Shown piece by piece: positions 338 through 38,846 of a DNA stretch of 42,528 bases. Origin of the DNA: a virus (lineage: Duplodnaviria; Caudoviricetes); the IMG/VR virus record IMGVR_UViG_3300020345_000002, positions 1 through 42,528 of that record; one strand, given 5' to 3'. How positions within the stretch are numbered: position 1 is the first letter of the stretch; every line of letters starts with the position of its first letter. The position numbers and the translations under genes were made by a program. The notes under the pieces are model-generated. The model was not told the origin of the DNA. It worked only from the letters and a program-made list of their open reading frames with translations, and did not search any database.

Positions 338-1503
338 AATTCTGCACTTGCTGTAAAATTGTATTGTACTAAAACCGTAGAACTACTTCCAGTTTGACCA
401 CCAAAGGCAAGAGTTCTAGGATTAGAAGTACCTTCTAAACTTAAAGCACAAACACCCCAACTACTGTTGTTATAGTGGCTAAAACGATTATCAGTTGAGT
501 TGGTTACACTATTAAGTGTATATGTAACAACGGTCGGTGTTGATCTCATTTCAACAGGAAGGTAATGACAAAGACCAGCTATATAATCACTTGCATAGGG
601 CTTGATATATTGATAAATACCTTTTCCTACACCATGAGCAGGAGTTGTTCCTTGCTCAAAACTTTTTTGATAATACCTCTGACATAAAGCAAGCTCCTGA
701 GCAAATGACCTGTGTTCAAAATCTGTTGCAACGCTGCCTACTTCTAACTGAACTCCTGTAATAAAAAAGTCATTTGAAGTGCTATCAAAAACATTTACCT
801 GTCCTGTAGCTCTCTTATTAGCAGTAAAAGCTGCCCATGTTGATGGTGGTGTCCCTCCTCCTGTATAAGTTGTTCCAGCCATTAACCAAAAGAAAATTCT
901 TAAACTTGACCCATTATCATTATCAAAAGCACCTGTTGTATCGGCTGGAAAAGTTAAAGTTACTTTTTGCCATGTATCTGCTGAACTGATTGTATAGCTT
1001 TTACAAACGTGCCTATCATTGTTGTCATCATAAAACTCAACCCAATGCACACCTGTTTTTGGAGATTTTACATGAAAAGAAATCGTAAATTGTTTTGCTT
1101 GTGCTGTTCCTTTGCAGAAAACTTGTACGTCTTGCCCTTCCATTCTGTGTTCTATAGCAACATAATGCCCTGCACTTACAGTTCCACTTGCTGTTGTGCA
1201 GTCATATTTTAAACTTTTTGAAAATCCATACCCTGCTGGAACATCTGTACTTTGTGAAGCAGTATATCTCATACTTCCTGTACCTTTCTGTTGGTATCTA
1301 TCAGGAGCAAAGTAGCCTTCGCTTGATCCGACACCTGTAGCTGAAGTTGATCTTTGAAAAACTTGAAATTCGCCATTAATGTTTAGTCGTCTATTACTTA
1401 AGCTATTAGTAATATTGGCAGTACACGTTCCATCATTAGCTAATGTGATCGCATCACTTGATGCACTGACTCCTTGAATAGCTGCAACTTTTAATGTACT
1501 CAT
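334..1503 (-). CDS. Tail fibre / receptor-binding protein with a carbohydrate-binding-like domain
   Basis: ING.FQVFQR ... TGVQLEVGSVATDFEHRSFAQELALCQRYY signature of marine phage fibres; paralog at 39754..40848. Confidence 0.75.
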   Translation of the reverse strand: MSTLKVAAIQGVSASSDAITLANDGTCTANITNSLSNRRLNINGEFQVFQRSTSATGVGSSEGYFAPDRYQQKGTGSMRYTASQSTDVPAGYGFSKSLKYDCTTASGTVSAGHYVAIEHRMEGQDVQVFCKGTAQAKQFTISFHVKSPKTGVHWVEFYDDNNDRHVCKSYTISSADTWQKVTLTFPADTTGAFDNDNGSSLRIFFWLMAGTTYTGGGTPPSTWAAFTANKRATGQVNVFDSTSNDFFITGVQLEVGSVATDFEHRSFAQELALCQRYYQKSFEQGTTPAHGVGKGIYQYIKPYASDYIAGLCHYLPVEMRSTPTVVTYTLNSVTNSTDNRFSHYNNSSWGVCALSLEGTSNPRTLAFGGQTGSSSTVLVQYNFTASAEL

Positions 1504-23324: not shown

Positions 23325-23660
23325 GTAACTTGAAAAATAAATAATTGGATCGGCGGAGCTATTGGGCTTTCACTTGCGTCAGGTACGCTCTCACACTGGT
23401 ACGAATTAAGGCTAGGTGGGAAATGCGGTTACGCTCCTCGAAAAGATTATTTCATAACTGCTAATAGCAAACTGGCAAGGCTCACTTATTAGCAGACATT
23501 CCTTTTACTTCTAGGCTGTAGCACTCACGAACAATAACAGGCAGCAAAGGGGCTTAACCACTTTGGCAAGTCTTCTTTCTCCCGTCACAGATTACTTCAC
23601 GAACTAGCACAGCCTACAAGTAAAAGGTACTTACTTTTTACTTACTGTTCACTTATCCAA
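23325..23660 (+). ncRNA. Structured early leader / candidate ncRNA with three stem domains
   Basis: No long ORF; 18/19-bp stem 23501-23519/23609-23627; 9-bp stem 23458-23466/23487-23495; interrupted stem 23339-23452. Confidence 0.55.
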
Positions 23661-24722: not shown

Positions 24723-25643
24723 ATGACTATTATGAATGGCCGAATGAAAGGCAAAAAAGCCGATTATGTCAAACCTGAGCAAGTTATCGTGAATGAATTA
24801 ATTCAGGCACTTGAATCAGGAAATACAAAATTATGGCGAAAAGAATGGACAGTTAAGGGTGGCTTCAGGAATGTCTTATCAGGGCATACCTATAAAGGCT
24901 CTAACCCTGCTCTGTTATGTTTACAGAGTTCTATTAGGAATTGGCATTTACCACTCTTTATAGGAGCAGGTCAGGCCAAGTCTATTAACTGCCTACCTAA
25001 ACGTGGTTCACGTTCGGCTCGAATATTACAACCGCTCCAGAGATCCTTTGAACTCAAAGAGAAAGACGAAAATGGAGAATCACAATATGGGTCATATATG
25101 GCTTATAAATGTGTTCCCGTTTTTAATGTTGCTGATATTCGAGGATTGAATGATGAAGCTAGTCTTAAATTAGAAAAGTTAATTGATGATGCAGTTCTAA
25201 CTGCTAAACCTAGAAAATTAGATGTCAGAGTAAAAGAAGCTCATGACAGATTATTCCAATGGGAAAAACAGATTAACACTCTTGTAAAGGGTGGAGATAG
25301 AGCTTATTACAGAGAGTCAAGTGATGAGATAGTCATTCCAAAAAGATATAACTTCAAGAATGATGAGTCTTATCTTGCGACTTTTGCTCATGAAGCAGTT
25401 CATTCAACTAAACATAAGACTAGGTTAAATCGAAAAGACTTAACTTACGCTCAGGAGGAGTTAGTAGCAGAGCTATCCGCATATCTCATATGCAACCGAC
25501 TTCAAATCTCAAATCTAGACACAATGAACCATGCAGCATATTTGCAAGCGTGGTGTCCAATGCTTAAGTCCGATCCAAAGATCTTATTTAAGTCATTAGC
25601 CAATGCTAGTAAAGCAGCAGATATGGTGATCGGAGAGCAATAA
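24723..25643 (+). CDS. ardC: ArdC-like antirestriction protein (DUF1738 ssDNA-binding + zincin-like domain)
   Basis: WRKEW..N..SG..YKGSN..VFN; AYY..D.I.IP..F..Y..T..HEAVH..YAQEELVAEL..HAAYLQAW. Confidence 0.88.
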   Translation: MTIMNGRMKGKKADYVKPEQVIVNELIQALESGNTKLWRKEWTVKGGFRNVLSGHTYKGSNPALLCLQSSIRNWHLPLFIGAGQAKSINCLPKRGSRSARILQPLQRSFELKEKDENGESQYGSYMAYKCVPVFNVADIRGLNDEASLKLEKLIDDAVLTAKPRKLDVRVKEAHDRLFQWEKQINTLVKGGDRAYYRESSDEIVIPKRYNFKNDESYLATFAHEAVHSTKHKTRLNRKDLTYAQEELVAELSAYLICNRLQISNLDTMNHAAYLQAWCPMLKSDPKILFKSLANASKAADMVIGEQ

Positions 25644-36966: not shown

Positions 36967-37386
36967 ATGAAAAAACTTTTACTACTTCTGTTTTTTTATG
37001 TCATACCAGTTAATGCACAGCCAATCGTACCTGCCTTCACTACTGGGACGGTTTCAAGCACCACTAATACAACAACTTCTATATCAGAAACAATTACCAG
37101 TTTTGACTATGCAACAGGATACGAATATACAGTTACAGGTGTTGGGGTTTCTATGGATGGTGACAGTATTACTCCACCTCCCACAACTATTAATGAAACA
37201 GTAAATGGGACTGTATATACATGGACAGGATTAGATCTTTCTTCAAAACCAAATTGGGAAGTTACAGGAGATGCCTTTCAATTTACAGAAACATATTATG
37301 GAGCAGGTCTTCAAAACATGACGATCATTCAAAGAAATATAGAAAGCGAATCAGTAGTTACATCTACCTCTGTCTTTTCCCAATAG
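36967..37386 (+). CDS. Secreted Thr-rich beta protein
   Basis: Sec signal MKKLLLLLFFYVIPVNA. Confidence 0.75.
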   Translation: MKKLLLLLFFYVIPVNAQPIVPAFTTGTVSSTTNTTTSISETITSFDYATGYEYTVTGVGVSMDGDSITPPPTTINETVNGTVYTWTGLDLSSKPNWEVTGDAFQFTETYYGAGLQNMTIIQRNIESESVVTSTSVFSQ

Positions 37387-37979
37387 CTCTAACACCTGTA
37401 GAAGCCCTTGCAAACGCTGTAAGTCAATCAAACAACGGCTCAGTCACAAATATGGCTATACAGTCATTAACAGGGAATATGACCACGAATCAGTTTGGAA
37501 ATAATATTGTTTGCCAGGGAGCTACTCTTACATTCTCTCCATTTATTACTTTTGGTGCTAACTATAGAAAACCTTTTGACCATTACTACACAACTCCGTA
37601 TTACGATCCAACAGATGCTAATGATGATGGAGTGCCAGATAATGCTGGTGATATTCTTTTTGAAATGGAAAACTATAGTGGTACAAACAAAGATAGCTTT
37701 GCAATTAATACAGGTTTTAGTTTAAACTTTACAATCCCACTTGATAGATCATTGCAAAGTACTTGTGAAGAAGCAGCTACAACACAGGTATTACTACAAC
37801 AACAGATATTAGAAAATAAAAGGTTAGATTGGCAGATAGCTCGTATTCGGGAGTGCGGTAATTTATTAGCTAACGGAGTACGAGTGCATGAAGATAGTCC
37901 TTTTTATGGGTTATGTGCTGATATATATCTAGAACCTAAACCTAATCAAGTTATACCGCATACACATCTCATAGAATAA
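37221..37979 (+). CDS. Secreted / outer-membrane-associated Cys-containing protein (start uncertain)
   Basis: Internal signal-like RKRISSYIYLCLFPIALTPVEALA; amphipathic strands, coiled coil, four Cys in the mature part. Confidence 0.7.
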   Translation: MDRIRSFFKTKLGSYRRCLSIYRNILWSRSSKHDDHSKKYRKRISSYIYLCLFPIALTPVEALANAVSQSNNGSVTNMAIQSLTGNMTTNQFGNNIVCQGATLTFSPFITFGANYRKPFDHYYTTPYYDPTDANDDGVPDNAGDILFEMENYSGTNKDSFAINTGFSLNFTIPLDRSLQSTCEEAATTQVLLQQQILENKRLDWQIARIRECGNLLANGVRVHEDSPFYGLCADIYLEPKPNQVIPHTHLIE

Positions 37980-37980
37980 C

Positions 37981-38188
37981 TAAGCAAGGGATAATAGAAG
38001 GGCAGTGATTCGTGGCACACGCAATGCTTCCAAATATGCCTTACTCTCCTTGCTAGGTAAGCAAAGGCTCTTTGTATCGGCAGAGCCTAAAAAGGTGTAC
38101 ATACAACTTCCTTTGCTAAGTAAGCAACTGACGCTCTGACAGTGAGGAGGTAGAACTTAATCTACTCTTTATCAGGTCTGGCTGCTTA
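37981..38188 (-). ncRNA. Tandem array of three rod-like hairpin units (candidate polycistronic ncRNA)
   Basis: Units 38121-38188, 38058-38118 and 37981-38055, each bounded by T(A)AGCA..TGCTTA with unit-specific complementary ends; 2-nt linkers. Confidence 0.6.
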
Positions 38189-38192
38189 TGTA

Positions 38193-38846
38193 CTATTCTA
38201 CCTTATCTTTCTTCTTTGTCAGTTTCTTTATTAAGTTCTTTACTATCGGTTTTACTAAATTAATAATAAGTGGTGTACTCGCAGCCACAGTAGCAATAAT
38301 AGCAGTATTAATAACGAGGCTAACTGGTGGTATGTATTGCTCTTGGAAAGGTACTTGCTCGTAAATGGTTTGGCAGATGCCTTCATCATCTCTTTCAAAG
38401 CCAACAATCCTCTCTAGCTTCTTATCATTAGCATAATCTCCAATTCTTCTATTGGAATTAGGGTCAGGGCAATCTGTTAATAAAACAATATCTTTCTCCT
38501 CATTAGGTGGGATTACTGGATTTTCTCTAGGAGGTGGTGGTGGTGTATTTATTGTAGGTTTAGTTTCTTCTTGAATATACTCTAATTCTTTAGGGTCATA
38601 ATTTATTGGTATATAAGATGGGATCGTATGCCCTGCTGGACAGCTATAGTATGAACCATTTGGATCGTCAAATATAATCTGTGTATTTTTAACAGAAACA
38701 TCCCTGTGTGTTCTTACACAACCAGCCATTTCAATTTTAGGTAAAGCTATATTAAGACTCTGATTTGTTGTAGGTATATGTATAACTGGTATTTCAGGAA
38801 TAACAATCTGAGAGATTTCTGGTATTAAGATTTTATCAATCGACAT
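38193..38846 (-). CDS. Pro/Cys-rich protein with a C-terminal membrane anchor
   Basis: CVRTHRD..CP..PPPPP..C-terminal TM and Lys-rich tail. Confidence 0.7.
   Translation of the reverse strand: MSIDKILIPEISQIVIPEIPVIHIPTTNQSLNIALPKIEMAGCVRTHRDVSVKNTQIIFDDPNGSYYSCPAGHTIPSYIPINYDPKELEYIQEETKPTINTPPPPPRENPVIPPNEEKDIVLLTDCPDPNSNRRIGDYANDKKLERIVGFERDDEGICQTIYEQVPFQEQYIPPVSLVINTAIIATVAASTPLIINLVKPIVKNLIKKLTKKKDKVE
38195..38222 (-). promoter_or_regulatory. Candidate promoter for the hairpin array
   Basis: CTGACA-16 nt-TAGAAT, with the -10 ending 6 nt before the first unit. Confidence 0.5.

Follow-up and report, generated by a model that had tools for sequence, protein, structure and literature searches.

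The gap between two convergent genes of a phage genome is occupied by an optional cassette of three rod-like RNA modules, and two of these modules closely resemble the leader RNA of an operon found in genomic islands of Prochlorococcus. By analogy with antitoxin mimics, we think it slightly more probable than an even chance that the array consists of phage-made decoys of each operon's cognate RNA, with one specificity per unit. The window, that is, the whole 42,528-nucleotide stretch of DNA that was analysed (IMGVR_UViG_3300020345_000002), is a complete virus record of 42.5 kb with terminal repeats, and it encodes terminase, portal, capsid, and lambda-like tail genes. The gap of 213 nt lies between the ORFs at 37221-37979 (+) and 38193-38846 (-) and is filled by the three units, which are joined by 2-nt linkers. 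The features are as follows.

37221..37979, plus strand: phrog_848 gene (unknown function), the convergent flank and marker of the site; widespread in cyanophages, with no role in the cassette shown
37981..38055, minus strand: unit 3, 75 nt; type found in 12 loci including the window
38058..38118, minus strand: unit 2, 61 nt, a rod of the A family; type found in 13 loci including the window
38121..38188, minus strand: unit 1, 68 nt, of the B family; type found in 4 loci including the window
38193..38846, minus strand: phrog_570 gene (unknown function), which flanks the cassette; in cassette-bearing phages the 3' end of this gene supplies the promoter match
38195..38222, minus strand: predicted sigma70-type promoter (-35 box, 38222-38217; -10 box, 38200-38195) inside the last phrog_570 codons; unit 1 starts 6 nt further on

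Almost all relatives of phrog_848 (426 records) come from cyanophages. Together with the unit matches in Prochlorococcus genomes described below, this suggests that the host of the window phage is Prochlorococcus. The same phage carries a further counter-defence function, an ArdC-like anti-restriction gene (Pfam ArdcN and MPTase-PolyVal; window 24723-25643). A short AT-rich intergenic palindrome at window 23617-23644 has a weak score with the A-family model (E = 0.19).

A previous reading of this DNA from its letters alone (the sequence-only reading) had proposed three units of 68, 61, and 75 nt with 2-nt linkers and T(A)AGCA/TGCTTA ends, each folding as a bulged rod. The coordinates and ends were verified, and folding of the minus strand gave one rod per unit, with z values of -3.56, -2.45, and -2.24 for units 1, 2, and 3. 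The corresponding plus-strand values were -2.01, -3.14, and -1.67, and those of the whole gap were -2.69 (minus) and -1.84 (plus). No known family explains the units: Rfam gave no match at the gathering score in the window and 20 loci, the matches by E-value being at chance level only, and a tRNA/tmRNA search gave none, in agreement with the previous view that the array is neither CRISPR nor tRNA. A stack of terminators, the alternative named there, is disfavoured as well, since no intrinsic terminator (short GC-rich hairpin and U run) was called in the gap. A comparison by eye with the motifs of K-turn, box C/D, hammerhead, hairpin ribozyme, and glnA RNAs gave no fit to the units.

The units are built on a common plan: a closing stem and an internal loop are followed by a 6-bp helix, two 1x3 loops that flank 2 bp, and 4-5 bp under a six-base loop. 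The interiors had been regarded as unrelated, but the A model, which was built without unit 3, still detects unit 3 (E = 0.0046), and the B model, in which two A rows are included, detects five other A units (E = 2e-6 to 1e-4). The stems covary, as had been proposed. In the A family (21 sequences), 86.4% of the cells are paired in the proposed structure, against 31-53% in slid controls, and double changes occur in 15 of the 21 pairs; RNAalifold gives the outer stem only. For 15 sequences of the B family, RNAalifold recovers the inner helices unaided, with covariation in 10 of 12 pairs. With 19 sequences, 92.3% are paired, though with no more pair types than in shuffles.

The conserved part is formed by the inner core arms, not by the handle. 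In a set of 43 B cores, 20 variants of the apical hairpin occur, of which 17 are fully paired, and long inserts can take the place of this hairpin; the 3' arm of this set was fixed by the search pattern, so its constancy is uninformative. The closing stem is built from other sequence in the stand-alone and host copies. This rebuilding of the closing stem and the free variation of the apical hairpin reverse the proposed arrangement of a constant handle with variable cargo: it is the inner core that is conserved and shared with the host leaders. It should be mentioned that several B-family rods (L052:3632-3777, L254:657-834, L427, and L410) have inserts of 90-124 nt, or longer nested ones, at the position of the apical hairpin, and that these inserts have an internal conserved stem-loop in common.

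A protein search with phrog_570 gave 80 related loci. In 23 of these, including the 15 closest proteins, there is no gap at all; the remaining loci hold hairpin modules. After four additional viral scans, the set comprised 159 loci in which one or more units could be typed, and 52 of these carried several. Some entries duplicate a contig already in the set, and other types also occur that were left untyped. The 151 distinct sequences sort under 23 seed types. Their order is shuffled: the type of unit 1 follows A6, B3, or the type of unit 3 in other loci. In a DNA run, both an empty form and a replaced form are present at this site. The gap is therefore an optional cassette in which units are gained, lost, and reordered in modular fashion, and the variable unit number expected from the sequence-only reading was borne out. 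In the search of phage records, only the single-cell virus record MH327490 has the site, with one A-type unit; the cultured phage records gave no match to the gap or to the podovirus-type cassette. Loose viral pattern matches were mostly chance loci (typed units in 2 of 120), and no phrog_848 relative was found in genome contigs among 84 candidates.

Such discrete gain, loss, and reordering, the location between convergent genes, and the variable apical inserts (18-124 nt) would also be seen if the modules were mobile or selfish hairpin DNA (attC-, REP-, or MITE-like) or stacked terminators without a function in trans. This explanation seems very unlikely. The modules have no fixed ends and no target duplication, and their closing stem is replaceable; Pfam found no integrase or transposase among the 62 window proteins, and the gap lacks a called terminator. 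Moreover, 23 relatives are without any spacer, the promoter motif follows the first unit, and there is one copy per genome.

Other elements were also observed in these phages. In L023 (3642-3770), L029, L048, L049, L056, and L060, the cassette's site is occupied by an RNA that follows a promoter, contains the complete Yfr1 motif, and has a terminator; it was missed by Rfam and is likely to be a phage-encoded sRNA of the Yfr1/Yfr10 type. In a recurring two-hairpin module (L027:3639-3710, L039, L044, L067, and many others), the loop of the second hairpin contains a conserved motif, and the 3' arm also serves as the -35 box of the promoter that follows. In L032, L075, L227, L234, L252, and L354, sRNA-like modules have at their end a U run and a strong hairpin whose loop is rich in purines, and each has its own -10 box. 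Probable extra unit copies lie elsewhere in the phages of L012 (5908-5937), L032 (483-502), and L372 (449-469).

The promoter assigned to the array in the sequence-only reading, CTGACA-16-TAGAAT, does exist as a match at 38222-38195 (10 of 12 positions). It sits in the last codons of the upstream gene, and alone it is not above chance, 5 sites with the same pattern being found against 6.8 expected; it gains significance only through the pattern in relatives. With a -10 box defined as a hexamer with at least 5 of 6 positions matching, among loci found by protein alone 21 of 22 first units have this box 3-9 nt upstream, against none of 10 internal units (1.2 in shuffles). For loci from the core-pattern search, the counts are 35 of 63 first units and none of 32 internal ones (3.0 in shuffles). 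All 23 empty sites lack the box. A different promoter motif, a non-coding one, stands at an equal distance from the first unit in many relatives. These boxes and the covarying stems bear out the idea of a promoter-led cassette of structured RNA modules. The closing stems on the promoter strand contain 51 G-U against 13 A-C oppositions. Contigs from RNA libraries, which carry no strand or level, cover the unit 1 and unit 2 types in one of three RNA runs; runs X19 and X21 gave no contigs over the units, which is not proof of absence. The units are probably transcribed from the predicted promoter.

The modules appear to be common to siphovirus-like and podovirus-like phages. The B core has 85 viral matches, 14 of which are without either flanking gene nearby. 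In the 11 contigs examined, its copies lie between what we take to be T7-like scaffold and capsid ORFs, between exonuclease and portal ORFs, or before terminase ORFs. These podovirus-like copies have their own promoter and terminator motifs and often a further module with a terminator-like tail.

Counterparts of the units are found in Prochlorococcus islands. The B model matched 2 of 151 genomes (genus of P. marinus MIT 9302), and the core pattern found the same two out of 285; there the copies have a promoter motif upstream and a strong ribosome-binding motif downstream. In one genome (G106), the RNA is the leader of an operon that encodes proteins of 115, about 152, and 61 aa, and a metagenome scan for the island variant gave three contigs, all with this operon type and leader. 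A search of 285 genomes with the gap sequence gave nine matches: three with unit 1, one with unit 3, and five weak ones with unit 2. Positions 8-63 of unit 1 match the leaders of island operons in G163 (52/54 nt), G250 (54/56 nt), and G081 (47/53 nt). The two differences from the G163 and G250 leaders lie in the apical stem and make up one compensatory change of an A-U to a G-C pair. For unit 3, the core (positions 17-55) matches the operon leader of G225 in 35 of 39 nt. A homologue of gene 1 lies directly downstream of each of these four matches (E = 3e-22, 8e-29, and 2e-7 for three, G163 being the fourth); the copy in G250 is cut at 73 aa. The antitoxin-mimic or decoy branch of the previous proposal is favoured by these matches of units 1 and 3, not by unit 2.

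Homologues of gene 2 occur in 10 of 285 genomes, and a B-model match lies upstream in 4 of these 10 loci (E = 4.5e-10 to 1.2e-3). The leaders of two further loci (G139 and G040) align with another phage module (p <= 0.0033; 3 of 20 comparisons), and two others (G189 and G176) are rod-like as judged by eye only; the last two (G133 and G241) are without gene 1 and without an RNA match. Judged from these alignments, the identity between unit and leader is allele-specific: other phage types fit the leaders of other alleles. Each host leader has one rod. The operon is present in about 13 of 285 genomes, many of them incomplete, and is rarer than might be expected from how common the phage modules are; in the 401-genome family sample, the gene 2 family was found in G106 only. 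No cognate of unit 2 was found in the 285 genomes searched, and none of the A-family units in 151 genomes. The five unit 2 matches (84%) are attributed to chance: the two inspected are antisense in a 320-aa ORF and do not reach the rod. An R2 match in G002 is inside a coding region, and R1 matches in G034 and G119 are not unit-like. A tblastn search with nine operon proteins found none of them in MIT 9302, in the window, or in the viral loci tested.

Some neighbouring observations should be added. About 100-250 nt upstream of the leader RNA of G106 (L346), there are five degenerate tandem repeats of ~26 nt, which share a motif with the short phage two-hairpin module. The host leaders of ORF 1913-2311 in L560 and of ORF 599-1066 in L563 have the same 1x3-loop plan by eye; with no model match and no phage copy in the set, they are candidate further alleles.

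The operon consists of 3-4 genes. The model of the gene 2 product (pLDDT 76.6, pTM 0.47) is a small beta-barrel with a long helix, and its top Foldseek rows are mostly OB folds (best E = 0.03, none at E <= 0.001), so that an OB fold is predicted for this product. The model of gene 1 is helical (pLDDT 78.4); no clear match came out of its fold search (best Z = 5.2, helical), and no catalytic fold was recognised. A search of the ESM Atlas gave leads only. Pfam and PADLOC found nothing convincing for the operon proteins; PADLOC, run on 15 of them, gave only partial weak Cas8b matches (E >= 0.001) on helical stretches. ToxN, CptN, TenpN, and AbiF were matched neither by Pfam among the G106 proteins nor by PADLOC among the 15. 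In the G081 and G225 operons, other genes replace gene 2, with no detectable homologue of it. This means that gene 1 seems to be the more constant partner of the RNA.

In the main rival to the decoy reading, the mimicry is kept but aimed at the switch of a mobile element (tycheposon or satellite), for which the operon would act as the control module. The leader would be an immunity or attenuation RNA, and the phage copies would silence the parasite, perhaps by base pairing. This is possible but unlikely. The apical loops often fit YUNR, the loop pattern of antisense RNAs, but they differ inside one type. Base pairing of the leader RNAs with their own gene 1 start (61-71 nt, three operons) was no better than that of shuffles (p = 0.36, 0.49, and 0.87). 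The copy in G112, which is a deleted operon remnant, lies about 3.7 kb from a tRNA-Met and beside a MarR-type gene, and one tRNA-Met is named as an island integration site in the portion of bioRxiv 2020.12.28.424599 consulted. However, Pfam found no integrase or primase in 31 of the 64 listed ORFs around G112 and G106.

The units might instead be auxiliary sRNAs that pair with host mRNAs or act on the Yfr1/Yfr2 network, the island copies being the same regulators ahead of unrelated genes. In favour of this, unit 1 contains 8 nt of the Yfr1 motif as given in section 10 of PMC2518516, the pairing of this unit with one Yfr2-like 5' end has p = 0.02 before correction for 63 comparisons, and RNAs with the full motif occur at the same site in relatives. 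It nevertheless seems unlikely to us. When 12 unit arms were compared with 1629 host start regions, the best duplexes were within or near the range of four shuffles, with W3 and B2, D slightly beyond it; there was no significant host BLAST match, nor an rRNA or tRNA match after multiple testing; and the host copies precede one operon family only. Apparent likenesses to 16S helix 22, tRNA, or 23S were not significant among 120 tests. With duplexes near chance level, the earlier suggestion of guides against host mRNA finds no support.

The least probable explanation, to which we give very little weight, is that the arms are guides against competing phages, either antisense or TIGR-like. Its best evidence is a unit type absent from the window phage, B3b, which is antisense in 18 of 18 nt to a tail-associated gene at window 903-920 (E = 4e-5 in 57 kb). 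This is, however, the only convincing non-unit match of 72 queries against a 658-kb masked set (E = 5e-4), where 42 of 720 shuffles reached E < 0.05, and it is probably due to chance. The 19 exact viral matches comprise 10 units and 9 in four unrelated contexts, and Pfam found no Nop/Tas, IS110-type, Cas effector, or RT protein among the 62 of the window.

Decoys are the simplest reading of RNA-only copies that are in sense orientation, follow a host-type promoter, represent several alleles, and are traded among unrelated phages. In the decoy model, each operon allele would transcribe a rod RNA of ~55-100 nt from its own promoter. An operon protein, either the product of gene 1, which is variable, or that of gene 2, with its predicted OB fold, would recognise the 1x3 internal loops of the rod; the operon proteins presumably bind the leader RNA. 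The rod RNA would restrain the operon system, and infection would remove it. From a host-type promoter, the phage would provide its own RNA copies in trans, with a separate unit for each allele, and these decoys would bind and neutralise the operon proteins, which probably act against phage. Phages might acquire the cores from islands by recombination, add the common closing stem, and trade the units at hot spots. That the operon may be an anti-phage defence system restrained by RNA is suggested by analogy with phage mimics of RNA antitoxins. More tentatively, and with somewhat less than an even chance in our view, an anti-phage system that is controlled by RNA, diverse in its alleles, and not described before might reside in the islands, and unrelated cyanophages might share a shuffled library of captured RNA antidotes, each unit disarming one allele.

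No description of the RNA family, the cassette, or the operon was found in the literature, mostly at the level of titles and abstracts, and five motifs were absent from six supplementary files of PMC10690425; the comparison covered parts of that paper, PMC2518516 (section 10), PMC9964418, PMC6778093, and bioRxiv 2020.12.28.424599. The results direct attention to an RNA-protein system of the most abundant marine phototroph that has so far gone unstudied, and matched test sets of host operon allele, leader RNA, and phage copy are available for it. Many phage module types, unit 2 included, are still without a cognate. If the decoy reading is true, the phage arrays would reveal which host systems matter in the wild and would lead to more of them. 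The concept of the auxiliary phage gene would be widened from proteins to non-coding RNAs traded by siphovirus-like and podovirus-like phages.

The cassette can be compared with several known systems. TIGR and integron attC arrays resemble the present cassette in that two-armed stem-loops follow one another in tandem and vary at the tip. Unlike these, the cassette has no Tas or integrase gene, no repeat-spacer alternation, and no attC end motifs, and its arms are conserved copies of host leaders. TIGR-Tas has a Nop-domain Tas gene next to the array and two variable 9-nt spacers that match adjacent strands of the target DNA; here neither such a gene nor an adjacent two-arm target was seen, and the arms are conserved and covary with each other; the fixed end motifs, target duplication, and recombinase of attC and MITE elements are likewise lacking. 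The immunity RNAs P4 CI and P1 c4 are encoded in the leader of a mobile-region operon and have allele-specific variants. The host RNA is similar in both respects, but it is a single rod without an Rfam C4 match, and no complement to it was found in its own leader (61-71 nt gene 1 start region, three operons). RNA anti-CRISPRs (Racr) and phage mini-arrays are promoter-led small RNA decoys derived from host defence RNA. The units are likewise predicted to be promoter-led small RNA decoys from a host RNA, but they are rods of 58-180 nt without a CRISPR repeat, and the host loci examined have no cas genes.

With Yfr1 and Yfr10, as described in section 10 of PMC2518516 and in part of PMC6778093, the cassette shares CUCCUCAC in unit 1, the island location of the host copies, and the Yfr1-motif RNA at the same phage site in relatives. 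The motif in unit 1 is 8 of 11 nt and partly paired, in contrast to the full 11-nt exposed single strand of that family; it is absent from the other 19 types tested, and Rfam gave no match. The closest parallel to the decoy reading is the type III toxin-antitoxin system ToxIN, whose RNA is reported to be mimicked by pseudo-ToxI of phage phiTE (PMC3594212). The present system differs in that the units are different alleles of a bulged rod rather than repeats of one pseudoknot, the host leader has one RNA copy rather than a tandem pseudoknot-repeat array, and the host operon has 3-4 genes without a ToxN, CptN, TenpN, or AbiF match. As in phiTE, the phage carries copies, without the cognate protein, of a host RNA that is sited between a promoter and protein genes; for units 1 and 3, though not for unit 2, the phage RNA matches the RNA upstream of a host gene.
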